DNA from: an uncultured Spirochaetaceae bacterium
GTDB lineage: Bacteria > Myxococcota_A > UBA9160 > UBA4427
NCBI GenBank assembly: GCA_964435795.1
Contig: CAYTAT010000002.1
Coordinates: forward strand, 143,898 to 207,897
DNA: 64,000 nucleotides
Direction: 5' to 3'
Positions within the stretch are counted from its first letter, which is position 1. The number at the start of each line of letters is the position of its first letter. Made by a program: the position numbers and the translations under genes. The notes beneath the pieces are model-generated. The model was not told where the DNA came from and ran no database searches. It saw only the letters and a list, made by a program, of their open reading frames with translations. Positions 4,256 through 31,014 of the stretch are shown in pieces.

Positions 4256-5104
4256 TTGGATGCATTCGGGGTGATCTGGCAGATGTTGGAGAAACATGCA
4301 CTGAATCGTGAATTCAGCTGGCGCGAGCTGGCGGGCCCCTTTCGTAGCATCAGCTCCGAACAGGCCGACCAATTCAATCGAGACGGTTACCTCCTCCTGG
4401 AAGATGTTTTCGATGCCGACCGCATCAAGGGGTTGCTGGCGGAGATCGATCCCCTGGAGGCAGAATTTGAGAAATTCCTGCGCGATCATCTGGGCGGCCA
4501 GGCCTTTATCACGCGGGCGGATGAGATCACCTTCAACGTGCATCTGGTAACCCGATCTCCGGCGGCCCGGGCCTTGACCCTCGATCCCGTTTTTCGCGAT
4601 CTGGTTTCAGACCTGATCGGTCCCGACGTTCGACTCTATTGGGATCAATCCGTCTACAAGAAACCCGGCACCGCGAAACCTTTCCCCTGGCATCAGGACA
4701 ATGGCTATACCTTCGTCGAGCCCCAGCAATATCTGACCTGCTGGATTGCGCTGACGGATGCCGATGAGGAAAACGGTTGCCCGGTGGTGGCGCCCGGCCT
4801 CCACCGCCAGGGGACGCTGGCGCATCACATCACCGAGCTCGGTTTCGAGTGTTTTTCCGATCCGCCGGTGCCCGCGGTCGTCGCCCCGGTGCGGGCCGGA
4901 AGCATGCTGATCTTCTCCTCGCTCACCCCGCATATGACGGGCCCCAATCTCAGTCGGGATCGGGATCGCAAGGCCTATATCGTACAGTTCGCGGCCGCCG
5001 ACGCGACCGTCACCCAGGGCGCGGGGGCGCAGCAGGAACGCGTCCCCTGTGACGCGGCGGAGCGCCAATATCCCGTCCTCGTGGCCGGGGCGGAGCCGGA
5101 CTGA
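4256..5104 (+). CDS. Phytanoyl-CoA dioxygenase (PhyH) family Fe(II)/2-oxoglutarate oxygenase
   Basis: FPWHQDNGY (HxD iron motif) with a downstream TPHMTGPN His. Start uncertain: TTG at 4256 or ATG at 4283. Confidence 0.75.
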   Translation: MDAFGVIWQMLEKHALNREFSWRELAGPFRSISSEQADQFNRDGYLLLEDVFDADRIKGLLAEIDPLEAEFEKFLRDHLGGQAFITRADEITFNVHLVTRSPAARALTLDPVFRDLVSDLIGPDVRLYWDQSVYKKPGTAKPFPWHQDNGYTFVEPQQYLTCWIALTDADEENGCPVVAPGLHRQGTLAHHITELGFECFSDPPVPAVVAPVRAGSMLIFSSLTPHMTGPNLSRDRDRKAYIVQFAAADATVTQGAGAQQERVPCDAAERQYPVLVAGAEPD

Positions 5105-6570: not shown

Positions 6571-7662
6571 ATGATGCGATTCGACCCACTGCATACGCGA
6601 CTCTGTGACGAATTGGCAGTCGCACTCCCAATCGTCTGCTTCACCCATTGCCGAGAAGTGGCGGTGGCCGCCACCCGCGCCGGCTGTTTTGCGGTTCTCG
6701 GAGAAGCGCTGAGGAGCATGGAAGAGATCGAAAGGGATATCGGCTGGCTGCGTGATCGCATCGGGAAGAATTTCGGAATCGACCTGGTACTGCCCGCCAG
6801 GGCGCCCCGCGACGCGACGCCCGACCAACTCTATTCGGAAATCCCAGAAGATCGGCGAGATTTTGCGGCTCGTATCGCAGAGGAATACGACGTGCCCCCG
6901 CCCGAGAATGAGGTCGTTCTGAATAAATGGGGCGGCAACAACCAGAAGATCGCCCGGGCCCAGATCGAAATGGTACTCGAGAACGAGGTGCCCGTGGTTG
7001 CGACCGGGCTGGGAGCGCCGGATTTCCTCTTTGAGGAAGCGCGCGAGCGAGGGGTGAAGATGATCTCCCTGGTGGGATCGGCCCGCCAGGCGCGCCGCCA
7101 GGCAGAGCGCGGCGCGGATATGATCGTCGCCCAGGGATACGATGCCGCCGGGCATACGGGCGGGGTGGGAACTTTTTCGATCGTTCCCGAGATCGTGGCC
7201 AGTCTGCCCGGAATTCCCGTGATCGCCGCCGGCGGGATCACGACGGGTCGCCATCTTGCCGCTTGCCTCTGTCTCGGTGCCGCCGGGGTCTGGACGGGGA
7301 CGGTCTGGCTCGCCAGCGAGGAGTCGGACGTCGACCCGATCTTGAAGGAGAGAATCCTGGCTTCGGGGGGAGAGTCCACGACGAGATCGGCATCGATTTC
7401 CGGCAAGACGATGCGCGTTCTTCGCTGCCCCTGGACCGAAGCCTGGGAGCGATCCGATGCGCCGGATCTGCTGAAGAGCCCCTACCAGATGCTGCTGACC
7501 TCCCGTTATCTCCAGGGGGCGAATGATGCCCGTCGCTCGGATCTCATGACCGAGGCCGTGGGGCAGGGCGTTCACTTCGTGGATCGGGAAGAGCCCGTGG
7601 CCGCGATCGCGGGGGAGTTGGCCGATGGAGCCAGGCGTGCTCTGCTGCGGTTTCGGTCCTGA
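6571..7662 (+). CDS. Nitronate monooxygenase (2-nitropropane dioxygenase-like, FMN)
   Basis: AQGYDAAGHTGGVGTF and PVIAAGGITTGRHLAACLCLGAAGVWTGT. ATG at 6571 is preceded by GAAAAGGAAA. Confidence 0.85.
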   Translation: MMRFDPLHTRLCDELAVALPIVCFTHCREVAVAATRAGCFAVLGEALRSMEEIERDIGWLRDRIGKNFGIDLVLPARAPRDATPDQLYSEIPEDRRDFAARIAEEYDVPPPENEVVLNKWGGNNQKIARAQIEMVLENEVPVVATGLGAPDFLFEEARERGVKMISLVGSARQARRQAERGADMIVAQGYDAAGHTGGVGTFSIVPEIVASLPGIPVIAAGGITTGRHLAACLCLGAAGVWTGTVWLASEESDVDPILKERILASGGESTTRSASISGKTMRVLRCPWTEAWERSDAPDLLKSPYQMLLTSRYLQGANDARRSDLMTEAVGQGVHFVDREEPVAAIAGELADGARRALLRFRS

Positions 7663-7850: not shown

Positions 7851-9407
7851 ATGCAGCGTCGGTGTGCCGCGTTCGCAGCGCTCTTTCTGACTCTTCTCCA
7901 GGGGGTGTTCGCGCCCGCACGGGCCGGGGAAAACGCGAGCCCCGAGCGGGCGACTTCCACCGGTATTTCGGTCGGGGCGATCTCGGATCTCGATCTCGAC
8001 GCCCTGCGCCGGGTCATCGATCGCCACGACGAAGTGGCCGTGCGCCCGACGCCGATGCGCCGCACGCTTTCCCTCGAAGAGGCCCTGAAGGTCGCCCTCG
8101 AGAATAATCTCGCGCTCCAGGTTTCCGCCCTGGATGTGAAGAGCAGTGATCTGGCGATCGATCAGGCGCGTTCGAAATTCCACCCCAGCGTTGGTTTCGA
8201 GGCCGACATGGTCGAGACCCGGCGCGCCCATTCGGATCGGGCGCGGCCCGATGAATTCACCGAGGTCCAGGATGCCCGGCTGATCGTTCGTCAGGAGGTC
8301 CCGACGGGCGGAGCGGTCTCCCTGGGGCTCGGTTATGGCCGCGAATTCAAGGATGAATACGTAGAGCCCTCGGACGGTCCCGGATTCATGTCCAAGAGCG
8401 TGAGCGAAATCGCCGGCCTGGGGATCGAGATCCACCAGCCCCTGCTGAGGGGGGGCAGGATCTATGTCGCCCGCAGGCAGATCCTCGACGCGCAATACGA
8501 CGATGAAATCAGTCGGGCCGAATTGCGCAGCCAGATCCTCCGGGTGACGGCCCAGACGAAGGCGGCCTATTACCGCGTCATCCAGACGCTGCGCCAGATC
8601 GAGGTTGTCGAGGCGGCCCTGCTTCGGGATGAGGAATTGGTCGAGGCCTCGACGGCCCTCTTCGACGCGGGCCGGGTGAGTCGGGTCGACGTCTATAGCG
8701 CCGAGATCAACCGATCCAAGGATGAGGCGCGCCTCGCCGACGCCCATGCGGATCTCGAATTGGCCCAAAATGAATTGCGCAAGGTGATCGGCCTGGGCAT
8801 CGATATCCAGATCGATGTCAGTGATCGGACGATTCCCTTCAAGCCACCGAGGGTCGATCTCCAGGGCTGGCTGGAGCGAGCCTTTGTGGATCGGCCCGAA
8901 ATGGTTCGGGCGCGCAGCGAAGTGGAGAAGAGCGAATTGGCGGTTCGCGTCGCCGGGAACTCGAAACTGCCCAGCCTGGATTTGAGGGGTGGCTTTCAAC
9001 CGGGTTTTGATTGGAAGAGTTGGAATTGGAATGCCGGCATCGGCATCGAATATCCGATCGGAAACGTGGCGGGGAAGTCGCGTTTCGAAAGGGCCCGGAT
9101 CGCCGAGGCCCGCAGCCGCCGAGCCTATTTGCATCAGAAGCGAGAGGTCGATCTGGAGGTTCGCGAAGTCGAGATCCGGCTGAGAGAGGGAATCGAACGC
9201 CTCAAGAGCCTGACCCTGCAGGTCGAAAACTCGCGCTCCAAGCGGGAGATCGCCCGGGGCCGCTTCGAGATGGGATTGGCGAATAATCTCGATATTCGAG
9301 AAGCGGATGAAGAATTGATTCGTTCGGAAAGCCTGCTGCTCGCGGCTCTCGTTGATTATGCGAGCAACCTGGCCCTGCTGGAAGCCAGGATCGGAGGGCC
9401 GCTCTAA
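7851..9407 (+). CDS. TolC-family outer membrane efflux protein
   Basis: Signal peptide MQRRCAAFAALFLTLLQGVFAPARAGE follows a GGTGGAGG RBS. Two OEP-type repeats carry long coiled helices (LSLEEALKVALENNLALQ..., RAELRSQILRVTAQTKAAYY..., ARSRRAYLHQKREVDLEVREVE...). Confidence 0.85.
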   Translation: MQRRCAAFAALFLTLLQGVFAPARAGENASPERATSTGISVGAISDLDLDALRRVIDRHDEVAVRPTPMRRTLSLEEALKVALENNLALQVSALDVKSSDLAIDQARSKFHPSVGFEADMVETRRAHSDRARPDEFTEVQDARLIVRQEVPTGGAVSLGLGYGREFKDEYVEPSDGPGFMSKSVSEIAGLGIEIHQPLLRGGRIYVARRQILDAQYDDEISRAELRSQILRVTAQTKAAYYRVIQTLRQIEVVEAALLRDEELVEASTALFDAGRVSRVDVYSAEINRSKDEARLADAHADLELAQNELRKVIGLGIDIQIDVSDRTIPFKPPRVDLQGWLERAFVDRPEMVRARSEVEKSELAVRVAGNSKLPSLDLRGGFQPGFDWKSWNWNAGIGIEYPIGNVAGKSRFERARIAEARSRRAYLHQKREVDLEVREVEIRLREGIERLKSLTLQVENSRSKREIARGRFEMGLANNLDIREADEELIRSESLLLAALVDYASNLALLEARIGGPL

Positions 9408-9426: not shown

Positions 9427-10071
9427 TCATCGGTCGTCCTGCCCGGAAGATCCCCCGGCATCCAAGCGAGTCAATTCAGCCAGGCGCGCCCGGATGCGCT
9501 GGAAGCCCGTGATATGGGTCATGGCGGCGACGAAATAGAGGACCCACCACATCAACTCATGACCGAGAATCGCGGGGGTGAAGGGTGCGGCGACCAATCC
9601 GACGCAGAGGGTGGCCGTGCGTTCGAGGCGTTCGAAGAGATCGGGCAGTCCCCGGCGCCCCTCGCCCGTGGCTCCCAGCATCCCGGCCCTCGCGCTGGCA
9701 TAGCTGGTGATCAACGAGCCGGCGAGGGCCAGACTGGCGGGCAGCCAGAACCCGCTGACCTCGGCGATGGCGAGCAGGATGAAGGCGTCCTTATAACGAT
9801 CCGTCGTGGCGTCGAGGTAGGCCCCCCGTCGGCTGCTGAGCCCGGTCACCCGGGCCACGGCGCCGTCGACGTTGTCCAGCAATTCGATCAGTCCGGCCAG
9901 GAGTCCGAAGACCCAGAGATTCCGGTGTGCGGTGAAGGCGAGGGCATTGGCGGCGCAGAGGAAGAAACCCAGCCAGGTGATCGCATTCGGGGTGATTCCG
10001 GTACGTGCGACCCACTTCCCCACCCGATCCCAGAGTCCATCGAGGGTGGGCTTGTAGAGTTCATCGATCAT
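9427..10071 (-). CDS. CDP-alcohol phosphatidyltransferase family membrane protein
   Basis: Full DGx2ARx8Gx3Dx3D motif (DGAVARVTGLSSRRGAYLDATTD) at 9799-9867; hydrophobic throughout. Start taken at the ATG overlapping the upstream stop (TGATG, 10069-10073). Confidence 0.85.
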   Translation of the reverse strand: MIDELYKPTLDGLWDRVGKWVARTGITPNAITWLGFFLCAANALAFTAHRNLWVFGLLAGLIELLDNVDGAVARVTGLSSRRGAYLDATTDRYKDAFILLAIAEVSGFWLPASLALAGSLITSYASARAGMLGATGEGRRGLPDLFERLERTATLCVGLVAAPFTPAILGHELMWWVLYFVAAMTHITGFQRIRARLAELTRLDAGGSSGQDDR

Positions 10072-11264
10072 CAGTAGCGATCCGAATTCCACATGAAGGG
10101 ATGTCCGATGGGAAGGGCGACCTCGAGCAGGGCCAGGGAGCGCTCGTTCAGCCCCGACGGAATGCTGCCCCCATGCCCGCTGGTGAGGACGCTCCCGATC
10201 GATCGGTAACCGAAGACCAGTTGCAGCAGGTCCCCGGCCGTCAATTCGAGGTCGATCTTCGTACTGCTGCGGCCCTCCGGGTTGAGAAGCAGCCGGCAGT
10301 CGTCTTCGTCACAGCGAATCCCCAGATCGATCTGGGCATCGTGATGACGCGAATCCTGCAAGCGTTCCGTCATCTTTCCGACCAGGCGCCCGAAAAGGCG
10401 CAGGGGGGCAAAGGCGAAAGCGAGGCAGCCCGATTTCTTGTGGTAGATGCTCGAGACCGTGGCCCCGTAGGCGATCGCCGCCTGCGCGAGGGGATGGTCG
10501 GGTGGGAATTTTCCCCTGAGCCGACGCTGATCTCTTTCCCTCGCCAGCGCTGCGAGTTTGAGGAGGGCCATCTCATAGAAGGCGCTTCCCCTGCCCATCA
10601 CCTCGCGGATCTCGATCCCGTTCTCATGCTCGCTGACTCCGATATAGCCCTCGTCGCAGATATAGATGGAGGGGGGGCGGCGGACCAGCCAGGGCCAGAG
10701 GTCTTCGTTTCGGATCAGCGGACCGATGCGATTCCGATTGCCCCCATTGTAGAATTCGATGATCGCAGTGAGGTCGGTGCTCTCATCCCAGGCGCGGAAG
10801 GGATCGTCGTGCAGGAAGGGAATCCTGCGGGTGTCGAGATCGAGATCGTAATCCGCTGCGACGGGAACGGCCCCGATGCGGCGGTAGAAGGCCCCCCGCT
10901 GGCCGAAGCCCAGGGCAAAGTCGAAGGGGCCTTCCCGATTGGCGGCGATCATCTTCAGGGCCACCTCTTTCGCATAGCCCTTGTGGTTGACATCGGGTTC
11001 GGCGGCCACGCCCTGGACGCCGCAGAAGGGGACCTCCAGGCCCTCCATGCACATGCGAAAATTCAGCAGTTGCCACTTGGCCACGATACGCCCATCGAGG
11101 GCGCCGACGTAGCAGTCCTCGGGACGCATGAAGGGGCAATGGTGGTAACCGGCCCGCAGTATCTGGAACATGTCTTCGCGCTCATGGCCGCTGCCGAAGG
11201 TTCGGGCGGTCAGATCTGCGGCCTGGTCGATTTCGTCGTGGCGAAGGGTCCTTACGCTCAGCAT
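10071..11264 (-). CDS. Eis-like GNAT N-acyltransferase with C-terminal SCP2-like region
   Basis: 397 aa. The length and layout match the Eis/GNAT-GNAT-SCP2 architecture (MLSVRTLRHDEIDQAADLTARTFG..., GVQGVAAEPDVNHKGYAKEV). Assignment is by overall resemblance only. Confidence 0.6.
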   Translation of the reverse strand: MLSVRTLRHDEIDQAADLTARTFGSGHEREDMFQILRAGYHHCPFMRPEDCYVGALDGRIVAKWQLLNFRMCMEGLEVPFCGVQGVAAEPDVNHKGYAKEVALKMIAANREGPFDFALGFGQRGAFYRRIGAVPVAADYDLDLDTRRIPFLHDDPFRAWDESTDLTAIIEFYNGGNRNRIGPLIRNEDLWPWLVRRPPSIYICDEGYIGVSEHENGIEIREVMGRGSAFYEMALLKLAALARERDQRRLRGKFPPDHPLAQAAIAYGATVSSIYHKKSGCLAFAFAPLRLFGRLVGKMTERLQDSRHHDAQIDLGIRCDEDDCRLLLNPEGRSSTKIDLELTAGDLLQLVFGYRSIGSVLTSGHGGSIPSGLNERSLALLEVALPIGHPFMWNSDRY

Positions 11265-11600
11265 CGCCGAGAGGTTAACCCCGCAGGCTCAGCCACACCC
11301 GTCCCCAGCTCGGCCCGCGGATGTCGTCTCCAAGGCGCGGGAAGGCCAGTCGGGTTGGGCTGTGATAGCCTCTCGCCGGGTCATTTCTGGTCCATGGCAG
11401 CCTCGAGGGATTCGCCACCATTCGCTTCGAGGAGAAAACGTTCTCGCCGCCGATTGGAAGCTGGTTACAGAATGCGGGCAGGCCCGTGTCGATCTTTTCC
11501 GGTGGGGAAGGGGCCCGACCGAGGGGCATAGACCCCCTGGGCCGGGGGCTGACGGGCGGCTCCATGGGGCTGTGGCTCCCGAGGGAGAGAAGTCTCGAAA

Positions 11601-13226
11601 ATGCGTCAAAACAGTACCTTGGCAAGCAATTCGAAGAAACTCCGCGAGCTTCTGGAAAGCCCCCGAGTCGAGCAGATCCTGGAGGCCCATAACGCCCTCT
11701 CCGCCACGATCGCGGAAGAGGCCGGGATCTCCGGGCTCTGGGCCAGTTCGCTGACGCTCTCCTGTGCGGCGGGTCTGCGCGACAACAGCGAATTGACGAT
11801 GACCGAAGTGCTGGACCTGCTCGAGACGATTACCGCCCGAGTGGAGATTCCGATTCTTTTCGATGGCGATACGGGCTACGGCCAGTTCAGCCATTTCCAG
11901 CAGTTGGTACGGAAGCTCTGCCTGCGCCGGGTAGGGGGGGTGTGCATCGAGGATAAGGTCTTTCCGAAGACGAATTCCTTCCTGCGATCCGAGAGCCAGC
12001 AGTTGGCCTCGATCGAGGAATTCGCGGGCAAGATCCGGGCTGGAAAGGATGCCCAGACGGATCCCGATTTCGTGATCGCCGCCCGCACCGAGGCCCTGAT
12101 CGTCGGCCTCGATACGGCGGCGGCCATCGAGCGCGCCGAGCGCTATGTCGACGCGGGTGCGGATGCCGTCCTGATCCATTCGAAGGAACGCACCTTTTCC
12201 CAGGTGCAGGATTTCATGTCGAAATGGAGCGGGCGCGCTCCCGTCATCTGTGTGCCGACGACCTATTACAGTACGCCCATCGAGGTCTTCGAACAGGCGG
12301 GCATCTCCCTCCTCATCTGGGCCAACCATATGCTGCGCGCGGGAATTGGATCCATGCAGAATGTCGCCCGCGAGATCGTTCGAGCCGGCACCGCTCGCGA
12401 TCTCGAGGATTCGATCGCCCCCGTCAAGGAAGTTTTTCGACTCCAGGACGCCGATGGTCTGCTGCAGGGGGAGAGGGAATATCTCCATCGGGCGGCGAAT
12501 TGCTCGGCCGTCGTACTCGCCGCGTCCCGGGGCACGGGCATGGACGAATTGACCCTCGACCGCCCGAAGGCCATGGTTCCGATCGCGGGGACGCCCGCGA
12601 TCGAGAAGATGCTCCAGAGCATGCGAGCCGAGGGCATCAAGGATATTTCCATCGTCCGCGGCTACAAGCCCGAGGCCCTCGCTCCCGGGGGTGTGCGCTT
12701 CTTCGACCACGAGCGCTGGGAAGAAAACGGCCTGCTCGGTTCCCTGGAGGCGGCGCGGGAAGCCCTCGAGGGCGAGGTGGTGATCGCCTACGGAGACGTG
12801 GTCTTCAAGCGTTACCTGCTGCATCTGCTGCTCGCCTCGGACGCTTCGATCACCATCGTGGTGGATGCATCGCGTCGCTTCCTCGAGACGGGCCGCGGGG
12901 CGGATCGCGTCCGGGTTTCCGGCCCGCCGGCGAATGCCTTCGAGGAATCGGAGAATTATCTCGAGGCGATGGCCCCAGATCTGGCCGACGATGCCGCGGA
13001 TGGCGAGTGGATCGGGATGCTGAGGGTGCGGGGCGAGGGGATGGAGGCATTCCTGGAGGCCCTGGACGAGGTGCGCGCGCGCCCCGACGGCCGCGAACTC
13101 GATCTCTGTCTGGTATTGACTCGGCTGGCCGAGAGGGATCCCCGATCGGTGAGGGTGATCTACGTGCAGGGGGATTGGATCGATCTCAATAGTCTCACCG
13201 ACGTGGCCCGGAGCGGAGATGTCTGA
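11601..13226 (+). CDS. pepM: Phosphoenolpyruvate mutase fused to a C-terminal nucleotidyl(cytidylyl)transferase domain
   Basis: PepM signature EDKVFPKTNS (EDKX5NS) at 11949-11978, with ILFDGDTGYG upstream. The C-terminal half has NTP-transferase-like AVVLAASRGTGMDELTLDRPKAMVPIAG. 541 aa. Confidence 0.9.
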   Translation: MRQNSTLASNSKKLRELLESPRVEQILEAHNALSATIAEEAGISGLWASSLTLSCAAGLRDNSELTMTEVLDLLETITARVEIPILFDGDTGYGQFSHFQQLVRKLCLRRVGGVCIEDKVFPKTNSFLRSESQQLASIEEFAGKIRAGKDAQTDPDFVIAARTEALIVGLDTAAAIERAERYVDAGADAVLIHSKERTFSQVQDFMSKWSGRAPVICVPTTYYSTPIEVFEQAGISLLIWANHMLRAGIGSMQNVAREIVRAGTARDLEDSIAPVKEVFRLQDADGLLQGEREYLHRAANCSAVVLAASRGTGMDELTLDRPKAMVPIAGTPAIEKMLQSMRAEGIKDISIVRGYKPEALAPGGVRFFDHERWEENGLLGSLEAAREALEGEVVIAYGDVVFKRYLLHLLLASDASITIVVDASRRFLETGRGADRVRVSGPPANAFEESENYLEAMAPDLADDAADGEWIGMLRVRGEGMEAFLEALDEVRARPDGRELDLCLVLTRLAERDPRSVRVIYVQGDWIDLNSLTDVARSGDV

Positions 13227-13252
13227 TCGGGAGAGCGCCTTCCCGCCGCACG

Positions 13253-14443
13253 ATGCAGGAGGTTCCGGGCTTGCCCCTTGACGCGCAACTCTTCTTCGGA
13301 GCCTTGCGCGAGGCTGGGGTGAAGGGCTTCGCGGGCGTTCCCTGTTCGATCCTCACGGATCTGATTCTGGAGGCCGAGGGATCCGAGGAGGTCGACTACA
13401 TCCCGGCATCGGTGGAGGGGGAGGCCGTCTGTGCTGCGGCGGGGATGTGGCTGGCCGGAGGTCTCGGCGCCGCCTTGATGCAGAATTCCGGTCTGGGCAA
13501 TGCGATCAATCCCCTCGCCTCTCTCTGCATTCCCTACCAGGTGCCCGCCCTCGTGATCGTCTCCTGGCGCGGTGAGCCCGGAAGCCAGGACGCCGTTCAC
13601 CATCATCCGATGGGCGAGGCGACCCCTGGGCTCCTCGAATCCCTTGGGATCCCCGCCACGATTCTGAGGGAATCGACGGATCTCGAGGCGGCCGTGGCGG
13701 ATGCCGTGGCCCATCTCCGGAAGGAACGTCGGCCCTCGGCCCTGATCGTTCCCCGCGGCGTTTTCGCCAAGAGCGGGCGGGCGAGCGGGGGCAGAGTTCC
13801 GCCGGCGGTTTCGAATGCGGAAGGCGGACGGGCGGGCGTGCCTCGGCGCTTCAGGGGCGGCGAATTGCCTTCGCGTAGCGAATTCCTGGCCGCCTGGCTG
13901 GAGCGTTTTCCCGAGGTTGCGGCGGTGTCCACGACGGGCTTCATGTCCAGGGAATTGGCCGCCCGGGGTCTGCTCGATCGACACTTTCCCATGCAGGGAT
14001 CGATGGGATTCGCCGCGGCGATCGCCCTCGGAATTTCGCGAACGCTTCCCGAACGCTCGCTGCACGTTCTCGACGGCGACGGGGCCCTGATCATGCGCAT
14101 GGGCAGCCTGGCCACGATCGGTGCCCTGGCACCCCGACGCCTGGCGCATATCGTCGTGGACAACGGCACCTACGCTTCGACGGGTGGGCAGTTGACGGTT
14201 TCGCCCTGGGTTGATTTTGCCGAAGTCGCCCTGGCCTGTGGCTATGTGGGCGCGGCCCGTTGCTGCGGTCGCGAGGGCCTCGGAACGGCCCTCGATTGGC
14301 TGGCGGATCAGCGGGGCAGCGGTCCACTATTGCTGCACGTATCGGTCGATGAGCGCGAGAGCGAGGGTCTGGCGCGTCCCGAACTCTCGCCCCCGGAAAT
14401 TGCCCAGGTCTTTCGCGATGGGGTGGGCGGACTTTCGGAATGA
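13253..14443 (+). CDS. ppd: Phosphonopyruvate decarboxylase (ThDP-dependent)
   Basis: ThDP motif GDGALIMRMGSLATIG...VVDNG at 14075-14164. N-terminal pyrimidine-binding half is GVPCSILTDL..EGEAV. Lies directly after pepM. Confidence 0.85.
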   Translation: MQEVPGLPLDAQLFFGALREAGVKGFAGVPCSILTDLILEAEGSEEVDYIPASVEGEAVCAAAGMWLAGGLGAALMQNSGLGNAINPLASLCIPYQVPALVIVSWRGEPGSQDAVHHHPMGEATPGLLESLGIPATILRESTDLEAAVADAVAHLRKERRPSALIVPRGVFAKSGRASGGRVPPAVSNAEGGRAGVPRRFRGGELPSRSEFLAAWLERFPEVAAVSTTGFMSRELAARGLLDRHFPMQGSMGFAAAIALGISRTLPERSLHVLDGDGALIMRMGSLATIGALAPRRLAHIVVDNGTYASTGGQLTVSPWVDFAEVALACGYVGAARCCGREGLGTALDWLADQRGSGPLLLHVSVDERESEGLARPELSPPEIAQVFRDGVGGLSE

Positions 14444-15225
14444 GCTCGGGACCGACGCTGGCGGTCATTCTGGCCGCGGGAATGGGAACCCGCCTCGAAG
14501 GACTCTTCTCCGACCGACCCAAGGGCTTCATCGAGATCGAAGGGGAGTCGCTGATCGCACGTTCCATTCGCCTCCTGCAGCAGCGTGGGATTTCGCGTGT
14601 CCTGATCGTCGTCGGTCATCTCGCCGGGGTCTACGAGGCATGGGCGCAGGAAAGGACGGGGGTCGAGACGGTACTGAATCCCGCCTATGCGGAGACCGGG
14701 AGCATGGCTTCCCTGGCCTGCGCTCTCGAGTACGTCGAAGAGGATTTTCTGCTTCTCGAGAGCGATCTCTTCTACGAGGAGCGCGCCCTCGATGCCCTGC
14801 TCGCCGGAGACGCGCCCGATGTCCTATTGGCTTCGGCGCCGACCGGGGCCACGGATGAGGTCTGGATCGAAACGGATGAGCGTGGGCTCTGCGGGATGTC
14901 CAAGGAAGCCGAGGAACTGAATTCGGTCTTTGGCGAATTGGTGGGCATGGTGCGCATCTCGCATCCGCTGGCCCGGATCATGTCGCGCGCCTACGCGGAT
15001 TTCGTAGCCGAGCGGGGGCATGGAAGAATGGCTTACGAGATGGACGCCCTGGTGGAGGCGAGTCGTTCGCGTGTCGTGGAGGTACGCCTGGTTCCGGATC
15101 TGCTCTGGGGTGAGGTGGATTACGAGAGTCATTATCTGCGAGTGCGCGACAAGGTTGCTCCCCTATGCGCCCCGAATCCAGGGGCGGGTCGCGATCTGGC
15201 GACCTCCGATGAGTCGATGGAGTGA
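14440..15225 (+). CDS. LicC-like nucleotidyltransferase (phospho-alcohol/sugar-phosphate cytidylyl- or nucleotidyl-transferase)
   Basis: N-terminal AVILAAGMGTRL loop, 261 aa. ATGA overlap with the ppd stop (14440-14443). Confidence 0.75.
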   Translation: MSSGPTLAVILAAGMGTRLEGLFSDRPKGFIEIEGESLIARSIRLLQQRGISRVLIVVGHLAGVYEAWAQERTGVETVLNPAYAETGSMASLACALEYVEEDFLLLESDLFYEERALDALLAGDAPDVLLASAPTGATDEVWIETDERGLCGMSKEAEELNSVFGELVGMVRISHPLARIMSRAYADFVAERGHGRMAYEMDALVEASRSRVVEVRLVPDLLWGEVDYESHYLRVRDKVAPLCAPNPGAGRDLATSDESME

Positions 15226-15229
15226 TGAG

Positions 15230-16351
15230 ATGAAGTCGATCGAACGAAAGATCCTGCTGAACCCGGGGCCGGCCACCACGACGGATAGTGTCAAGGCGGC
15301 CCTGCTGATTCCGGATATCTGTCCCCGCGAGAAGAGCTTCTGCGAGTTGTACGCGGATGTGCGTCGGCGGCTGGCCCGGGCGGCGGGGGATCCCGAAGAA
15401 GTCGCTGCGATTCCCCTGGTGGGCAGTGGCACGACCATCCTCGAGGCCGGTCTGGTGAGCTTGATCCCGCCGATGGGTCGGGTCGTGATCCTGGATAACG
15501 GGGATTATGGTCGACGCCTGGCCGCGATCGCGGCGGCCCATCGGATCGACCATCGGGTCGTGGAGATGGACTGGGGTCGGCCGATCGATTTTGATCGCCT
15601 GGACACAATCCTGGCGGAAGAGGAGGGTCGCGCTTCCCACCTCTTTGCGATCCATCACGAAACGAGTTCCGGATTGCTGAACCCCCTGGATTCCCTGATC
15701 GAATCCGCGCATCGCCGGGGCCTCAAATTGATGCTCGACGCCATGTCGAGTTTCGCCGCATTGCCGATTCGGGTAGGCGCAGGGGCGGTGGACATCCTCT
15801 TCAGCAGTTCGAATAAATGCCTGCAGGGAATGGCGGGCCTAGGCATCGCGATTCTTCGCCGCTGCCTGATCGACGAATTGCGCGGGACGGATCGGCACTG
15901 CTATGTGCTGGATCTCGTCGCCGAGCACGACCATCTCGAGCAGACGGGGCAGAGTCGTTTCACCGTTCCGCCCCAGGTGGTTTCAGCACTCCATCAGGCG
16001 TTGCTCGAATTCGAGAGCGAGGGCCTCGAGGGTCGCCAGAAGCGCTACCAGGAGAGCATGCGGGTGCTGAGGAAGGGCCTGGCCGACCTCGGTTTCGACT
16101 CGCTACTCGAGGATGAGCATCAGAGCGGGATCCTGGTGGCGATCCGGGCACCGCAAGCCCCCTGGTACGACTTCGATCATATGCACGACGCCCTCGATCA
16201 GCAGGGCTTCACGATCTATCCCGGCAAACCCGGTGCGGAAGCCACCTTTCGGCTGGCGGTGCTCGGGGCGATCGATGCGGGGGATATCGAGGCCTTCCTG
16301 CTGGCCCTGGGTCGCTATCTTGAGAAGTTGAAGGGAAGCGCAGCATCTTGA
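15230..16351 (+). CDS. phnW: 2-aminoethylphosphonate:pyruvate aminotransferase (class V aminotransferase)
   Basis: LLNPGPATTTDSVKAAL N-terminus and SSSNKCLQGMAGLG (PLP lysine). Start is the ATG at 15230, 4 nt after the upstream stop. Context is pepM-ppd. Confidence 0.85.
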   Translation: MKSIERKILLNPGPATTTDSVKAALLIPDICPREKSFCELYADVRRRLARAAGDPEEVAAIPLVGSGTTILEAGLVSLIPPMGRVVILDNGDYGRRLAAIAAAHRIDHRVVEMDWGRPIDFDRLDTILAEEEGRASHLFAIHHETSSGLLNPLDSLIESAHRRGLKLMLDAMSSFAALPIRVGAGAVDILFSSSNKCLQGMAGLGIAILRRCLIDELRGTDRHCYVLDLVAEHDHLEQTGQSRFTVPPQVVSALHQALLEFESEGLEGRQKRYQESMRVLRKGLADLGFDSLLEDEHQSGILVAIRAPQAPWYDFDHMHDALDQQGFTIYPGKPGAEATFRLAVLGAIDAGDIEAFLLALGRYLEKLKGSAAS

Positions 16352-17256
16352 AGGAGGAGATCGCCGTCCGCCTCCTCTGGACCTTGGGAAGCCTCTTCGC
16401 CATCGCCGGGGCTGGGGTCGGGATTCATTGGGCCTGGCGCGGACGTCGCGCCGGCCAGTCGCGAATGGGAACGCGTTTCGGATTGGAGGTGCTCTTCCTC
16501 GCCGCCATCTGGTTGCCCGCCTATTGGGGCGGGCCCTGGCTGCTGGGGGCGGTGCTGGCGCTCGGCCTTCTCTGCGCCCGGGAACTCTACGGAACATTCG
16601 AGCGGGGAGGGGAGTCGCCGTGGCCGGGCTGGGGCGGCGCACTCGGGGTCCTGATTCTTCTGATCGTCTACCTGCGGCCGGGAGTGATCGGCTGGCTCTT
16701 TCCGCTGCTCGTGATCCTCTACCAGGGGCTCCGCTGGGGGGCTCTCGCACACCCTGAATCCATCCTGCCGCGAATGCGTTCGACTGCATTCGGACTTCTC
16801 TATCCCTTTGCCTGCCTGGCTTTCTTCCTGGAGTTGGGCCTGCGAGAGGACGGTTTCGGTTACGCGATTCTCTTCTACGGCATTTGCGAGGCCCAGGATT
16901 CCGCCGGTTACCTGGTGGGCAGCAGCATCGGCAGGCGCAGGATCTTCCCGCGACTCAGCCCCGGCAAGACCGCGGAGGGAGTCGCCGGGGGAATCCTCTT
17001 CGCGATCGCGGTGGCCTTCGCTTTTTCATTTGCCGTGCCGGAATTCGATTCCCTGCGCCTGGCAGCGGCGGCCATCCTGATCGCCTGCGCGGGGCTTGCG
17101 GGGGATCTCTTCGCCTCGCGGCTGAAGCGCAGGGCCGGAGTCAAGGATTACGGCGACCTGATTCCCACCCAGGGAGGGGTATTGGATGTTTACGACGCGT
17201 TCATCTTCGTCGCCCCCGTCTTCTACTACTTCCTCGAGTTGACGGGATCCGGCTGA
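16348..17256 (+). CDS. Phosphatidate cytidylyltransferase (CdsA / CTP-transferase-1) family membrane protein
   Basis: SPGKTAEG motif; polytopic hydrophobic protein. TTG start overlaps the phnW stop (TTGA, 16348-16351). Confidence 0.8.
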   Translation: MKEEIAVRLLWTLGSLFAIAGAGVGIHWAWRGRRAGQSRMGTRFGLEVLFLAAIWLPAYWGGPWLLGAVLALGLLCARELYGTFERGGESPWPGWGGALGVLILLIVYLRPGVIGWLFPLLVILYQGLRWGALAHPESILPRMRSTAFGLLYPFACLAFFLELGLREDGFGYAILFYGICEAQDSAGYLVGSSIGRRRIFPRLSPGKTAEGVAGGILFAIAVAFAFSFAVPEFDSLRLAAAAILIACAGLAGDLFASRLKRRAGVKDYGDLIPTQGGVLDVYDAFIFVAPVFYYFLELTGSG

Positions 17257-17331: not shown

Positions 17332-18906
17332 TCATTCGCCCTCGTTGAGCTGTCGGAACCAGGAACGGGTGGTCTTGAAGTAGGAGACAAAGGCTTCGTA
17401 ACGCCGGGAATAGAGTTCACGATATTCCGCTTGAGGTTCGAAGTAGGCCTCGATCTCGACCAGATCGTGCATTTCGTCGAGAGAGTCGATTTCACCCAGG
17501 GCCCTCAGGGCGATCAGTGCCGCTCCGCGAACCCCCGTGAATTGCGGATTCGCGACCCTTTCGATCCGCTTGTCGAGAATATCGGCCATGATCTGGCACC
17601 AGGCATCGCTTTGGGCTCCACCCCCGGTGATTCGCAGTTTCGGCACCTTCTCACCGAGCAATTTTTCGACGACGTCCAGGGCCCAGCGATTGTTGAAGCC
17701 CACGCCTTCGAAGACGGCGCGCAGCAGATGGCGGCGGTCATGATCGAGTCCCAGATTGACGAATCCACCGCGCAGAGCCGATTCATCCACGGGTACGCGT
17801 TCCCCCATCAGCCAGGGGAAGAAGAAGACGCCGTCGGCCCCCGCTTCGCAATCCTCGACCAGGGCGTCGATCGCCTCATAATCGAGAGAGGAATCGAGTA
17901 GCTTTCGACGCACCCATTCGAGGGAAGCTCCGGCCGTCTCCTGGGTGGCGATCAGGATGTATTTGCCGGACTCGGCGGCGCAGAGGGTGCCCGTTGCCGC
18001 GAAGGGATTGACGGCCCGATTGTCGAGATGGGTCGCAACCCAGGAACTCGTGCCCAGGTAGAGGTGTACTTCGCCGTCGCGGACCGCTCCCGATCCCACC
18101 GCACACGAGGGCACATCCCCGGCCCCGCTGACCACGGCGATCCCGGCATGAATGCCGAGATCCTCCGCGGCATCGGCTCGCAGTTCACCCGCGACCGATG
18201 TCGAGGGAATGACCTCGGGCAAGCGCTCCGGATCCAGGCCGAGCATCTGGAGAATTTCCTCCGACCAGCCGAGATTTCCCTTGCGGGTCCTGAAGAGCCA
18301 GCCCCCGCTCGCCAGGTCGTAGCTGGTGGACATGCGGCCGGTACAGCGCATCACCAGGTAGTCCTTTACATCGAGGAGTTTGTAGGTCTGCTCCCAGATG
18401 TCTGGGCGCTGCTCCCGCAGCCAGACGAATTTCGAGGTCGTATCGCGGCCGGCGAGACTCGGCACTCCATTGGTCGTCCGCAGCCATTTGATCAGTCGCG
18501 GCAGGCCATAACCGCTGATCTTCGGATGGCCGTGGGTCATCCTTCGGGCCTGTTCCCGGGAGCGGGTATCCAGCCAGATCATCGCGTTCATCAGGGGTTT
18601 GCCGTCGCGGTCGACGGGCAGGACGCCGAACATCTGGCAGGAGAAGACGATGCTCCGGATCCCGGCCGGATGAAAATTCGGTCTATCGCGCAATTGGCGA
18701 ACCGCGGCACAGATCGCATTCCACCATGCATTCGGATCCTGCTCGGCCCAGCCGGGCTCGGGGTAGAGAACCTCGATCGGCTGGCTGGCGCAATCCCGCA
18801 CCTCGCCCGTGTAGGAGACCAGGGCCACCTTGATCGCCGAGGTGCCTACGTCGACCGCCAGGACATGGTCTTCGCGCGTTTCCGGAGCCAGTGCCAGCAC
18901 AGTCAT
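17332..18906 (-). CDS. FGGY-family carbohydrate/polyol kinase (xylulokinase/glycerol-kinase-like)
   Basis: LAVDVGTSAIKVALV phosphate-1 motif and C-terminal ITGGGAQSDAWCQIMADIL. Start is ATG at 18906; TTG at 18945 is also possible. Confidence 0.85.
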   Translation of the reverse strand: MTVLALAPETREDHVLAVDVGTSAIKVALVSYTGEVRDCASQPIEVLYPEPGWAEQDPNAWWNAICAAVRQLRDRPNFHPAGIRSIVFSCQMFGVLPVDRDGKPLMNAMIWLDTRSREQARRMTHGHPKISGYGLPRLIKWLRTTNGVPSLAGRDTTSKFVWLREQRPDIWEQTYKLLDVKDYLVMRCTGRMSTSYDLASGGWLFRTRKGNLGWSEEILQMLGLDPERLPEVIPSTSVAGELRADAAEDLGIHAGIAVVSGAGDVPSCAVGSGAVRDGEVHLYLGTSSWVATHLDNRAVNPFAATGTLCAAESGKYILIATQETAGASLEWVRRKLLDSSLDYEAIDALVEDCEAGADGVFFFPWLMGERVPVDESALRGGFVNLGLDHDRRHLLRAVFEGVGFNNRWALDVVEKLLGEKVPKLRITGGGAQSDAWCQIMADILDKRIERVANPQFTGVRGAALIALRALGEIDSLDEMHDLVEIEAYFEPQAEYRELYSRRYEAFVSYFKTTRSWFRQLNEGE

Positions 18907-19037
18907 GCGGAAAGGGTAAGGCCTGGGCCCGGAGTCAGCAATCAAGGGAGAAGGGGGTGGTGGTTTGGCGGCCGGGTTTGCAGATGCCGAGCCGAAGTGA
19001 GAGGCTTCTCGGGTGGCGTCATTCAGCGCCGATGGAT

Positions 19038-19772
19038 TCAGCTCGGATTGCTTCCCGGATTCGCGGGATTCCGAGGGCCTTCATCCCGGACGATCCGCCC
19101 GTCGACGAGATGGATCAGCCGATCTGCCTTTTTGAAGACCCGGGCATCCTGGGTGACCATGAGCACGGTGGTGCCTCTCTGGTGGGCGAGTTCCGCCAGG
19201 AGTTCGAGAACAATTTCGGTATTCCCGGCGTCGAGGGCTGCGGTGGGCTCGTCCGCGAGGACCAGTGCGGGGCGGTGGACCAATGCGCGGGCGATGGCCA
19301 CGCGTTGGCGTTGTCCACCCGAAAGCTGGCCCGGTTTGTAGTCGAGACGTTCGCCGAGGCCGAGTCGATCGAGCAATTGGGCGATGTATTTGCCGGGGTC
19401 GGGTCCGAGATCGCCGGCCAGGTCAGCGGCCATCTGCACGCTCTGGAAGGCCGTGAGGGCGGGGAAGAGGTTGTGCAATTGAAAGATGAAACCGAGTTGG
19501 CAGCGATAGCTCTCGAGCCCCGATTCGTCCAGGCGTTTGAGGTCGTGGCCGATGGCGATGAGTCGGCCCTCCTGGGGTCGCCGCAGGGCGCCCACCAGGC
19601 TCAGCAGTGTCGTCTTGCCGGAACCCGAGGGCCCGGTCATGATGGCGAATTCGCCCTCTTCAAGGCGCAGGTCGATTCCGAAGAGAACCTGCTTGCGGGC
19701 CTCCCCCGTGCCGAAGGCATAATTGACGCCCTCGATCTGGATTGCGTCGATGCCTTTGCTCATGCCCTCCAC
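19038..19772 (-). CDS. devA: ABC exporter ATP-binding subunit, DevA-like
   Basis: Walker A GPSGSGKTT, signature LSGGQRQRVAIARAL, Walker B LVLADEPT. Follows the two DevC-like permeases directly. Confidence 0.85.
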   Translation of the reverse strand: MEGMSKGIDAIQIEGVNYAFGTGEARKQVLFGIDLRLEEGEFAIMTGPSGSGKTTLLSLVGALRRPQEGRLIAIGHDLKRLDESGLESYRCQLGFIFQLHNLFPALTAFQSVQMAADLAGDLGPDPGKYIAQLLDRLGLGERLDYKPGQLSGGQRQRVAIARALVHRPALVLADEPTAALDAGNTEIVLELLAELAHQRGTTVLMVTQDARVFKKADRLIHLVDGRIVRDEGPRNPANPGSNPS

Positions 19773-20912
19773 CTAGAAGAGTTCCGCGGGTTCCAGCCGC
19801 TGGATGTTGCGCAGGGCCAGCATTCCCGCCAGGGTGCACATGCCGAAGGAGAGCAGCCCGACACCCAGGATGTCGCCCAGACTCAGGGAAGCGGGCAGGC
19901 CGCTGCTGATGCCCAGGCCCGCCAGCAACACGCCTCCCAGAACGATGGAGGGGATGAAGCCCAGCATCGAGAGCTGGGCCGCCTCGGCGATGACGACGAG
20001 TTTGATGTAGCGATCGCTATAGCCCATGGCCTTCAGCGTGGCGAACTCCACTAGATGATCGATGACTTCCGTATAGAGGATCTGATAACAGATCGCGATG
20101 CCTACCCCGAAGCCGAGGGCGACTCCGACGAGTAGGAAAATGCTGATGGGCGTGCCCTGCTCCCAGTAGCGAAGATTGTCTTCGATCAGACTCTCCTTCG
20201 CGTAGGCGCGAACATCCCCGGGCAAGATCTCGGAAAGCGTCGTCAGGACCTTCGCCGGATTCGCGCCCTTTTCGAGCTTGAGCAGGGCCGCTTCCACCTC
20301 TCGGCTGCCGTCATGGGTTAATTCGAAATAGGTTTCGTCGGAGACGAGCAGGCTGCCGTCGACCTCGAAATCCGTGCCGAGGGCAAAGGTTCCGACGATT
20401 TCGATCTGATGGCGACTGACCTGGGCGGGTCCCGCCTCGAGGCGGCCATAGGAATCCCGGGAGAGTTTGTCGATCAGGGCCGTTCCCTTACGCTTCAGTT
20501 TTTCCGCGTTTTCGTTCACGGCATCGATCAGGAAGGTGGGTTTTTCCGGGTCGAATCCGATTACTCGAATCGGGTGAAGCGTATTCTGCTCCAGATTCTT
20601 CCACTGTTCGAGGGACATCCAGACGGGTGCGGCAGAGGCCACGCCCGGAACCGAGAGCGCCTGGTAGAGCCTTTCGGCCGGCATCCTATCCCGCGCCAGG
20701 AAGGGATGCTTGCCCTTGTTGATCACGATGATGTCGGCGTCGAGGCGTCTCAGTTGCTCGACCGAACTGTCGAGGAGGGCATTGCGGAAGCCGAGTTGGA
20801 GCAGCATCAGCAGCAGGGCGAAGGTGATGCCCCCCGTAGAGGCCAACAGTCGACTCCGCTCATGGAGCAGGAGCCGACGCGAAAAGCGCAGGGCTTTCGA
20901 AATATTCTGCAT
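19773..20912 (-). CDS. devC: ABC exporter permease, DevC/FtsX-like (paralog 2)
   Basis: N-terminal TM, large periplasmic domain, then a C-terminal FtsX-type 3-TM bundle (ATLKAMGYSDRYI...). ATG overlaps the upstream stop (TGATG, 20910-20914). Confidence 0.8.
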   Translation of the reverse strand: MQNISKALRFSRRLLLHERSRLLASTGGITFALLLMLLQLGFRNALLDSSVEQLRRLDADIIVINKGKHPFLARDRMPAERLYQALSVPGVASAAPVWMSLEQWKNLEQNTLHPIRVIGFDPEKPTFLIDAVNENAEKLKRKGTALIDKLSRDSYGRLEAGPAQVSRHQIEIVGTFALGTDFEVDGSLLVSDETYFELTHDGSREVEAALLKLEKGANPAKVLTTLSEILPGDVRAYAKESLIEDNLRYWEQGTPISIFLLVGVALGFGVGIAICYQILYTEVIDHLVEFATLKAMGYSDRYIKLVVIAEAAQLSMLGFIPSIVLGGVLLAGLGISSGLPASLSLGDILGVGLLSFGMCTLAGMLALRNIQRLEPAELF

Positions 20913-26515: not shown

Positions 26516-26562
26516 GGGGGAACTCCCTGAAGTCCATCGGGGTCGGCATGGAATCGCGCAAT

Positions 26563-26577
26563 TTCAGTCCGACTGAA
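26563..26577. promoter_or_regulatory. Perfect 7-1-7 inverted repeat TTCAGTC-C-GACTGAA in a divergent promoter region (candidate operator)
   Basis: Read directly. It lies in the AT-richer 320-bp gap between the divergent CoA-transferase (-) and small-protein/ligase operon (+). Confidence 0.35.
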
Positions 26578-27147: not shown

Positions 27148-27162
27148 TTTGAGAGTCGACCT

Positions 27163-30994: not shown

Positions 30995-31014
30995 GCATTC
31001 CGGCCGGGTCTTCA

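Follow-up and report, generated by a model that had tools for sequence, protein, structure and literature searches.

What does a bacterium make from 2-aminoethylphosphonate (AEP) when the genes for its synthesis share a locus with genes for membrane lipid enzymes? We addressed this question for a 64-kb stretch of contig CAYTAT010000002.1 (the whole stretch analysed is called the window below). The DNA comes from an uncultured marine bacterium whose closest proteins are labelled as belonging to Myxococcota metagenome-assembled genomes (MAGs), and the identical PepM protein is present on at least 24 metagenome contigs. An initial annotation of the locus had proposed a phosphonolipid pathway in which AEP is activated to CMP-AEP and passed to diacylglycerol (DAG). 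The idea of a phosphonate-bearing lipid stands after our analysis, but the chemistry proposed for it and the claim of novelty have to be revised. We suggest that the locus is a mosaic of two co-expressed modules and that its product would be an AEP-bearing (glyco)phospholipid with AEP in phosphonodiester linkage, a structure to which sequence and structural models together give about an even chance. More broadly, it is probable that the locus yields some membrane lipid or glycolipid that contains AEP. Translational coupling ties the AEP genes to CdsL, the CdsA-like gene, throughout one clade of Myxococcota, which makes an AEP-bearing membrane (glyco)phospholipid the most likely product. The genes concerned are:

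7851-9407, plus strand: TolC-like outer-membrane factor (PF02321, two repeats), adjoining CDP1
9427-10071, minus strand: CDP1, CDP-alcohol phosphotransferase of 214 amino acids (aa), ATG start at 10071 with an alternative GTG at 10092
10071-11264, minus strand: Eis-type GNAT, 397 aa (Pfam Acetyltransf_9; fold search)
11265-11600, no strand: divergent intergenic region of 336 nucleotides (nt), presumed promoters
11601-13226, plus strand: PepM-NT1 fusion, with phosphoenolpyruvate (PEP) mutase at about 11601-12485 and the NTP_transf_3 domain NT1 at about 12486-13226
13253-14443, plus strand: Ppd, thiamine diphosphate-dependent phosphonopyruvate decarboxylase (TIGR03297)
14440-15225, plus strand: NT2, putative PntC-type AEP cytidylyltransferase (NTP_transf_3; PntC structure 6pd1)
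15230-16351, plus strand: AEPT, AEP aminotransferase of the biosynthetic AepZ type (TIGR03301)
16348-17256, plus strand: CdsL, CdsA-like CTP_transf_1 membrane protein (PF01148)
17332-18945, minus strand: FGGY-family sugar/polyol kinase (XylB model), convergent with the operon
19038-22998, minus strand: MacB/LolCDE-like ABC exporter with ATPase, two FtsX permeases and membrane-fusion protein (called genes and Pfam domains)

Synthesis and activation of AEP

By strong homology, the route from PEP via phosphonopyruvate and phosphonoacetaldehyde to AEP is encoded here, as had been proposed. PepM (TIGR02320, 343.2 bits), Ppd (TIGR03297, 335.7 bits) and AEPT (TIGR03301, PhnW-AepZ, 368.3 bits) all exceed their NCBIfam trusted cut-offs (319.55, 312.5 and 360.8, respectively), and E-values of 1e-100 or below in the profile searches rule out chance. 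The catabolic PhnW model TIGR02326 remains below its own cut-off on AEPT. The characteristic motifs are found at 11949-11978 in PepM (EDKVFPKTNS), at 14075-14164 in Ppd (GDG...N) and at 15803-15820 in AEPT (SSSNKC); all motif coordinates quoted earlier reproduced exactly when checked against the window sequence.

The locus contains two nucleotidyltransferase-like sequences. NT1 is the NTP_transf_3 domain (PF12804, residues 303-426) fused to PepM, and NT2 is a separate protein. NT2 matches the Treponema denticola Tde1415 PntC structure 6pd1 along its entire length with 142.9 bits (E 1e-40, residues 8-238), and more weakly LicC (51 bits) and inositol-1-phosphate cytidylyltransferase (36 bits). 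Tde1415 is a characterised AEP cytidylyltransferase in which Glu104 and Glu196 contact the amine of AEP (Rice et al., PMC6697681). NT2 keeps both residues, Glu104 in 'LLLESD' and Glu196 in 'YE', and is by strong homology an enzyme of the PntC type, which makes it a well-founded candidate for the formation of CMP-AEP. The cytidylyl activation of AEP put forward in the initial annotation is therefore likely. NT1 lacks both amine-binding glutamates, has 'AASRGTG' where PntC and LicC have 'AAGxGxR', and finds its best solved-structure match in LicC (37 bits); it may act on a substrate other than AEP. None of the enzymes characterised in PMC6697681 was a Ppm-fused PF12804 domain.

Operon structure

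The tight coupling described for the five forward genes was confirmed. Their junctions are, in order, a 26-nt gap, an ATGA overlap, a 4-nt gap and a TTGA overlap, the last being the 4 nt shared by the AEPT and CdsL genes. On the other side of the spacer, the stop codon of the GNAT gene overlaps the ATG of CDP1 by 1 nt, so the divergent unit consists of GNAT followed by CDP1. Two genes had been left out of the initial annotation, namely the GNAT gene between CDP1 and pepM (10071-11264) and the FGGY kinase gene (17332-18945).

The 336-nt divergent spacer presumably carries the promoters. Metagenome annotations place an open reading frame of 96-116 aa within it (11275-11625, minus strand), which is probably spurious: spacer and reading frame show no conservation in relatives, and the latter has no Pfam match. 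In sister loci this position is occupied by a glycosyltransferase family 4 (GT4) gene. The spacer or the 96-aa reading frame was considered as a GT4 remnant or a regulatory RNA, and this was rejected as no GT4 similarity, conservation or Rfam match was found. No Rfam family was matched anywhere in the window, and the promoter and terminator scan gave matches no more numerous than in shuffled sequence.

The CDP-alcohol phosphotransferase CDP1

The reaction assigned to CDP1 determines how the whole locus is read. CDP1 scores 42 bits against CDP-OH_P_transf (PF01066, cut-off 22) and contains DGAVARVTGLSSRRGAYLDATTD at 9799-9867; the full D-x2-DG-x2-AR-x8-G-x3-D-x3-D motif spans 9799-9876 (residues 66-91), and a P(D/N)xx(T/S) motif is present as P28-N29-x-x-T32. 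Its best NCBIfam profiles are archaetidylinositol-phosphate synthase (AIPS; 128.6 bits, cut-off 180) and phosphatidylinositol-phosphate synthase (PIPS; 88.6 bits, cut-off 170). Aligned to Mycobacterium tuberculosis PgsA1 (MtPIPS), CDP1 keeps R94, S132, Y133, R137, R152, R155 and R195 of that enzyme, and its equivalents R92, S123, Y124, R128, R148, R151 and R192 are invariant across 23 family members. The pair R151/R192 of CDP1 corresponds to R155/R195 of MtPIPS, which bind the phosphate of inositol phosphate (PMC4634129, PMC6506517).

The AlphaFold2 (AF2) model of CDP1 (pLDDT 93) has one juxtamembrane helix and six transmembrane (TM) helices. The top Foldseek match is M. tuberculosis PgsA1 with CDP-DAG bound (E 2e-7, TM-score 0.71-0.76), the top entries being 6h59, 6wm5 and 5d92, and further matches are the M. 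kansasii and Renibacterium PIPS, AF2299 and DIPPS. The match to phosphatidylglycerophosphate synthase is weaker (E 7e-4), and that to the Kennedy-type enzymes CEPT1/CHPT1 (E 0.05-0.17) is about five orders of magnitude weaker than that to PIPS. From its profile, conserved residues and predicted fold, CDP1 is best read as a CDP-DAG:alcohol-phosphate phosphatidyltransferase of the PIPS/AIPS type.

The initial annotation had instead given CDP1 a Kennedy-type role, moving AEP from CMP-AEP to DAG to yield AEP-diacylglycerol, the phosphono-analogue of phosphatidylethanolamine. It is true that CDP1 is the sole CDP-alcohol-family transferase in the window, and that CMP-AEP is probably available from the PntC-like NT2. 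CEPT1/CHPT1-type Kennedy enzymes accept CMP-AEP in eukaryotes that make AEP lipids. CEPT1 shares the superfamily and catalytic motif of CDP1, but has about ten TM helices instead of six. The size of CDP1 is not in itself proof against DAG, because CAP-type cardiolipin synthases are small, 6-TM CDP-alcohol phosphotransferases that use a lipid acceptor. DAG-accepting enzymes normally contain three or four further TM helices (PMC4634129), and such extra C-terminal helices for a lipid acceptor are absent from CDP1. Kennedy-type transfer from CMP-AEP is also what the published model for Burkholderia and Nostoc puts forward (PMC5987646). In our case it appears unlikely, since the fold of CDP1 matches PIPS, AF2299 and DIPPS far better than CEPT1/CHPT1, and the CDP1 family is kept in loci without pepM with the same invariant residues, including the arginine pair for the acceptor phosphate. 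Kennedy-type transfer would also leave no role for CdsL and the FGGY kinase, the most constant partners of CDP1, and the CEPT-like CDP2 of sister loci described below is better suited to it. The alternative suggested alongside it, in which AEP reacts with CDP-DAG, cannot work chemically in the form given, since AEP lacks a hydroxyl group.

The resemblance of CDP1 in fold and sequence to AF2299 and IPCT-DIPPS, which use soluble CDP-alcohol donors, raises another possibility. CDP1 might join CMP-AEP to a soluble alcohol phosphate, either inositol-1-phosphate or the product of the FGGY kinase, and the resulting soluble phosphonodiester would be a compatible solute or a precursor that is lipidated later. 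A kinase and a cytidylyltransferase as constant neighbours would fit such a reaction. We nevertheless consider it quite improbable, as the best structural match of CDP1 is a PIPS with CDP-DAG bound and the presence of a dedicated CdsL in this operon speaks for CDP-DAG as the donor. The exporters of the MacB/TolC type, plus LptFG-like and MsbA-like genes in Alphaproteobacteria, point to a membrane product.

CdsL, the FGGY kinase, the GNAT protein and the exporter

CdsL matches PF01148 with 157 bits over profile positions 3-263 of 264, carries SPGKTAEG at 16957-16980, and is presumed from this homology to be a CDP-diacylglycerol synthase paralogue. In every sister locus its gene closes the pepM operon or stands one place before the end. 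The FGGY kinase scores 352.7 bits on the XylB model, just under the cut-off of 380. It adjoins CdsL or CDP1 in the Myxococcota relatives and is a conserved member of the head-group module.

The GNAT protein gave no match in a sequence search of the PDB. Its AF2 model (pLDDT 89) has a three-domain GNAT-GNAT-SCP2-like fold, and the top Foldseek matches are Eis-type (E 3e-21 to 1e-16 over about 420 columns). The family comprises 62 proteins at least 40% identical and is restricted to MAGs of Myxococcota or 'Delta' type. The gene adjoins CDP1 in five relatives (loci L011, L012, L093, L095 and L096). L012 had been considered as a locus with GNAT but without pepM, and was rejected because it lies on the same contig as L097, whose pepM operon is about 15 kb away.

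The cluster is bordered by MacB-type exporter genes in L007, L094 and L095, and in L097 these genes are within it; a TolC-like gene is syntenic beside CDP1 in L007, L010, L012 and L094-L096. From this synteny it is possible that the MacB-type ABC system exports the product, and that the TolC-like factor is its partner.

The lipid module in loci without pepM

A scan of genome contigs with the CDP1 family alignment resulted in 80 loci, which were screened by tblastn with the window proteins together with other loci that we fetched; a scan of metagenome contigs with CDP1 gave only two short loci. In 31 of the loci screened, an FGGY kinase gene lies upstream of the CDP1 orthologue and ends less than 200 nt before it. 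These loci belong mostly to Rhodobacteraceae, Stappia, Aestuariivirga and other Alphaproteobacteria. PepM, ppd, AEPT and GNAT are each found in none of the 31, and the following genes accompany the FGGY-CDP1 pair:

GT4 glycosyltransferase: 28 of 31 loci
NT2-like gene: 20 of 31
myo-inositol-1-phosphate synthase (MIPS): 18 of 31
short-chain dehydrogenase/reductase (SDR): 17 of 31
CdsA-like gene: 16 of 31
Stealth: 16 of 31
CDP2-like second CDP-alcohol transferase: 13 of 31

In Shimia thalassica CECT 7735 (L045, 1-13061), for example, the order is aminotransferase, DUF4833, MIPS, SDR, CdsA-like, LptF-like, LptG-like, NT2-like, GT4, FGGY, CDP1, Frag1/PGAP2-like and MsbA-like. The module also exists without phosphonate genes within the Myxococcota: a complete 6.2-Mb genome (L007) has CdsL, CDP1 and the FGGY kinase, with the MacB-type ABC system, the TolC-like gene and an esterase in synteny as in the window. 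CdsL, CDP1 and the FGGY kinase are thus an older, pepM-independent module, and not accessories of the phosphonate pathway as had been assumed. The AEP genes were probably inserted into this older lipid head-group operon of Myxococcota, as judged from gene content and order.

The conserved pepM-less cluster of marine Alphaproteobacteria (L045, L008, L017-L061), which also includes Stealth, the CEPT-like CDP2 and an MsbA-like ABC gene, looks like an undescribed inositol glycolipid pathway resembling those of phosphatidylinositol mannosides (PIMs) or glycosylphosphatidylinositol (GPI). Our literature searches found no published description of a MIPS/FGGY/PIPS-like cluster in Alphaproteobacteria or Myxococcota. 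The comparison also brings to light a MIPS/PIPS-like/FGGY/GT4 cluster that is widespread among marine Rhodobacteraceae and related bacteria and apparently undescribed. For the NT2 homologues encoded there PntC is the best match (109 bits), and both glutamates are retained, which suggests a small primary-amine substrate such as phosphoethanolamine.

These similarities allow a wider but rather doubtful reading, in which marine Alphaproteobacteria and Myxococcota would share an undescribed pathway of the PIM/GPI type. It would lead to an anionic outer-membrane glycolipid with a polyol phosphate or inositol phosphate, substituted with AEP in one Myxococcota clade. The parts of the pathway would be the CdsA paralogue, the PIPS-like synthase, the FGGY kinase, GT4, Stealth, a 'mini-Kennedy' pair of PntC-like and CEPT-like enzymes, and dedicated exporters. 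Insertion of pepM-ppd-(aepZ) would then have let AEP, a C-P analogue resistant to phosphatases and phospholipases, replace a substituent of the phosphoethanolamine type. The window would represent a minimal version, where dealing with the phosphonate must fall to the PIPS-like enzyme or to an unlinked gene. If this were true, a genetic route to a bacterial glycerophosphonolipid or phosphono-glycolipid would have been defined for the first time.

Sister loci that link the AEP genes to the lipid module

The coupling of AEP genes to lipid genes noticed in the window is real, as pepM is present in nine of the 13 Myxococcota-clade loci with a CDP1 at least 45% identical. The order PepM-Ppd-NT2-(AEPT)-CdsL recurs in L011 and L093-L097. 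In the fullest sisters, L094-L097, the operon reads GT4, PepM_NT1, Ppd, NT2, (AEPT), CdsL and CDP2; it is convergent with the FGGY kinase and MacB-type exporter genes, and a divergent unit holds (GNAT), CDP1, (Stealth) and the TolC-like gene. The nine loci include one from Polyangiaceae (L009), with a CDP1 46% identical, in which AEPT-Ppd-PepM_NT1 stand beside PhyH, GT4, CdsL and CDP1, and which also holds a DAGK_cat kinase, Stealth and a CDP2-like gene. L010 has neither pepM nor ppd, and a 78-aa remnant of AEPT (7340-7573, minus strand, 52% identical) lies between its NT2 and CdsL genes. This remnant indicates that the AEP genes were lost in L010 and not gained in the window, so that the linkage would be ancestral in the clade. 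Neither CdsL nor CDP genes accompany the more distant relatives of PepM_NT1 (52-61% identical); the AEP-lipid linkage is specific to this clade.

CDP2 is a protein of 249-263 aa with the full CDP-alcohol phosphotransferase motif, encoded at the end of the pepM operon in the sisters (minus strand, 1794-2543 in L094, 1733-2518 in L095 and 737-1528 in L096). Its best solved-structure match is human CEPT1, if weakly (E 0.0065). From sequence and position, CDP2 would be the best and natural candidate for the CMP-AEP transfer step in the sister loci.

A phosphatidylinositol-specific phospholipase C-like (PI-PLC-C1) gene is found in L095 (17483-18529, minus strand), about 7 kb from the cluster.

The initial annotation had stated that glycosyltransferases are absent and had regarded their consistent presence in orthologous loci as pointing to glycan decoration. 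The absence holds for the 64-kb window, in which we find no GT4, CDP2, Stealth or LicD gene, but not for the orthologous loci. GT4 genes are present in L010, L011 and L094-L097, and in L011 and L094-L097 the pepM operon begins with GT4. Could AEP then go to a glycan or glycoprotein, with the lipid genes building a separate, phosphonate-free lipid or anchor? Their co-location would in that case reflect shared envelope biogenesis or a shared use of CTP. Stealth and PMT_2 genes in L095 and L009 would fit, as would the polysaccharide-export contexts of more distant PepM-NT1 relatives and a locus from Vicinamibacteria (L099), where GT4 also opens the pepM operon and CdsL and CDP genes are missing. 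GT4 enzymes also build glycolipids, for instance PIMs and GPI, and their presence is therefore compatible with a lipid product. Marine pepM clusters are generally tied to glycan assembly (PMC8931226, PMC6697681). For the window we still think that a glycan destination has a low probability: the AEP genes are intact and translationally coupled here, yet glycosyltransferase, LicD and Stealth are all missing, and CdsL is joined to the pepM operon by 4-nt overlaps in every member of the clade.

Three sister operons (L011, L093 and L095) have the order PepM_NT1-Ppd-NT2-CdsL. Either AEPT is encoded elsewhere in these genomes, or another phosphonate is used, e.g. phosphonoacetaldehyde or 2-hydroxyethylphosphonate (HEP), and operons without AEPT would leave one of these two. 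One could hence imagine that CDP1 joins CDP-DAG to a hydroxyphosphonate, 1-hydroxy-AEP or HEP, to form a phosphatidyl-hydroxyalkylphosphonate. The phosphonate would mimic the phosphate of inositol-1-phosphate or glycerol-3-phosphate in the acceptor pocket, where the anion-binding arginines are kept, and 1-hydroxy-AEP is predicted for clusters of the Burkholderiales type (PMC8942020). A possible hydroxylase is the PhyH oxygenase at 4283-5104, which is syntenic in L094, and another PhyH lies inside the L009 cluster. The window PhyH is five genes away in another transcription unit and absent from L095 and L096, and its best structural relatives are the sugar/polyketide oxygenases EvdO2 and SnoK, not phosphonate hydroxylases. 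Neither cytidylyltransferase would have a role in this scheme, and the operon has no alcohol dehydrogenase for HEP. Together this makes a hydroxyphosphonate acceptor very improbable.

The PhyH gene, for a 2-oxoglutarate (2OG)/Fe(II) oxygenase on the plus strand, stands beside genes for a 2-hydroxyacid dehydrogenase and an aldehyde dehydrogenase. As a counterpart of the 2OG oxygenase of Burkholderiales clusters it was rejected on the same grounds of distance, separate transcription, patchy synteny and EvdO2/SnoK-like structure.

A model for the product

In the favoured model, an AEP-bearing (glyco)phospholipid would arise from two modules. Module A (11601-16351) would convert PEP through phosphonopyruvate and phosphonoacetaldehyde to AEP, which NT2 would activate to CMP-AEP. 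Module B would consist of CdsL, CDP1, the FGGY kinase and the Eis-type GNAT. CdsL would make CDP-diacylglycerol, and CDP1, to judge from its fold, conserved residues and neighbourhoods, would combine CDP-DAG with a phosphorylated soluble alcohol to give an anionic phospholipid resembling phosphatidylinositol phosphate (PIP). The acceptor might be inositol-1-phosphate supplied by genes outside the window, or else what the FGGY kinase produces; as this kinase is the constant partner, it may not be inositol phosphate. AEP would then be moved from CMP-AEP to a hydroxyl of the head group or of its glycan, where it may replace the phosphoethanolamine-type substituent that the PntC-like/CEPT-like pair would add in pepM-less relatives. 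The GNAT may N-acylate a head-group amine, and the MacB/TolC-type system would export the product.

Several observations weigh against this model. Firstly, no CMP-AEP transferase is identifiable in the window, and CDP2, GT4 and Stealth, which sister loci possess, are absent from its 64 kb. Secondly, CdsL reaches only 82.6 bits on the Escherichia coli CdsA equivalog NF008635 (cut-off 385), and in what we take to be the C-terminal signature pattern of CdsA (17116-17196) it has H changed to Q and R/K to V; other CTP_transf_1 members are CTP-dependent lipid kinases. CDP1 is below the equivalog cut-offs of both AIPS and PIPS, and Ser126 replaces K135 of MtPIPS, an inositol-ring contact in PIPS. The 64-kb window has no MIPS gene, and none of the Myxococcota relatives has one within 10 kb of the cluster, as opposed to the 18 of 31 alphaproteobacterial loci with MIPS near the PIPS-like gene. 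Thirdly, the pepM operons of L011, L093 and L095 lack AEPT, which implies that the phosphonate used may differ between relatives. And finally, no phosphonolipid has been demonstrated for any cluster of this kind (PMC8942020).

The locus offers a compact set of 7-9 genes as an experimental entry point to bacterial phosphonolipids, and its relatives are natural 'knock-outs' that differ by single genes (AEPT, GT4, CDP2 or pepM). If abundant marine Myxococcota do make an AEP membrane lipid, this lipid would contribute phosphonate in both particulate and dissolved form, and it would be an example of the substitution of a P-ester by a C-P head group.

Comparison with known systems

The initial annotation saw little precedent for such a gene set, but clusters of pepM, PntC and a CDP-alcohol transferase have already been published as predicted phosphonolipid loci (PMC8942020, PMC5987646). 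Decoration of lipids or glycans is the presumed role of about half of the bacterial pepM clusters, and the most abundant pepM neighbourhood in RefSeq, 'Burkholderiales_CDP-OH' (318 of 882), has an uncharacterised product (PMC8942020). As cited in that paper, it corresponds to the Group 1 phosphonolipids of Yu et al. 2013, and a phosphonolipid pathway scheme has been drawn for Nostoc and Burkholderia (PMC5987646). The Group 1 clusters share with the window a Ppm-NTP_transf_3 fusion, Ppd, AEPT, a second PntC-like enzyme and a CDP-alcohol phosphotransferase, and in both an AEP-type lipid head group is predicted from the genes. The PepM proteins are about 53% identical. The examples we compared, from Mycetohabitans (L090) and Roseomonas (L091), include LPG_synthase_TM/HpnL and, next to the other genes, a 2OG-Fe(II) oxygenase, neither of which is in the window cluster, and lack the CdsL, FGGY kinase and Eis-type GNAT found in the window. 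Their transferases match CDP1 with 33-43 bits, at the level of the motif, and belong to a different subfamily; we rejected them as orthologues of CDP1 or CDP2, since the similarity to either is at motif level only. Given the different transferase subfamily and gene content, the window is not a member of the Burkholderiales_CDP-OH family. By its gene content the locus is a variant of the predicted pepM phosphonolipid clusters, built on a PIPS-type head-group module.

In Roseomonas marmotae plasmid p1318-3 (L091) and the Mycetohabitans megaplasmid (L090) the pepM clusters lie among hopanoid and isoprenoid genes, the neighbours being hpnH, shc, hopanoid-associated phosphorylase, ispH, dxs, polyprenyl synthetase and MMPL. 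These neighbours hint that the acceptor in Burkholderiales-type clusters could be a hopanoid rather than diacylglycerol.

The Pnt pathway of T. denticola (Tde1415, 6pd1) resembles the window in that its clusters have a PntC distinct from the Ppm-fused NT domain, but Tde-PntC is fused to AEPT whereas NT2 and AEPT are separate genes. Characterised Pnt clusters have LicD-type phosphotransferases or glycosyltransferases where the window has CdsA- and PIPS-type genes (PMC6697681).

The bacterial PIP pathway of mycobacteria and Bacteroides consists of MIPS, PIPS/PgsA1 with CDP-DAG, and a PIP phosphatase (PMC4634129, PMC6506517, PMC9246714), and both Myxococcus and Bacteroides are known to contain inositol lipids (PMC9246714). 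PIPS and archaeal AIPS share with CDP1 the fold, the signature motif, P(D/N)xx(T/S) and the phosphate-binding arginine pair, and the alphaproteobacterial CDP1 orthologues beside MIPS, a CdsA-like gene and GT4 parallel PIM biosynthesis. The window differs from the PIP pathway in the lack of MIPS, the serine at K135, the FGGY kinase as partner, and the AEP genes within the operon.

The only bacterial phosphonolipid of known structure is the 1-hydroxy-AEP ceramide of Bacteriovorax stolpii, a predatory bacterium of 'delta' type whose pepM cluster (gene cluster family GCF 761) has AEPT and a Ppm-PF12804 fusion (PMC8942020). The two clusters are likened by description only: that product is a sphingolipid with hydroxylated AEP, and the window has no sphingolipid genes. 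For bacterial glycerophosphonolipids no gene has been linked to a structure (PMC8942020).

Other genes in the window

Further along the window, the region 25082-39317 contains two acyl-CoA ligase genes and a run of three CoA-transferase family III genes; one of the three encodes a double-domain protein of 805 aa. The region is interrupted by an autotransporter gene (31080-34319), and a second autotransporter is found at 41178-44348. An HNH endonuclease gene (50991-51728, minus strand) lies directly downstream of pheS-pheT (47385-50929).

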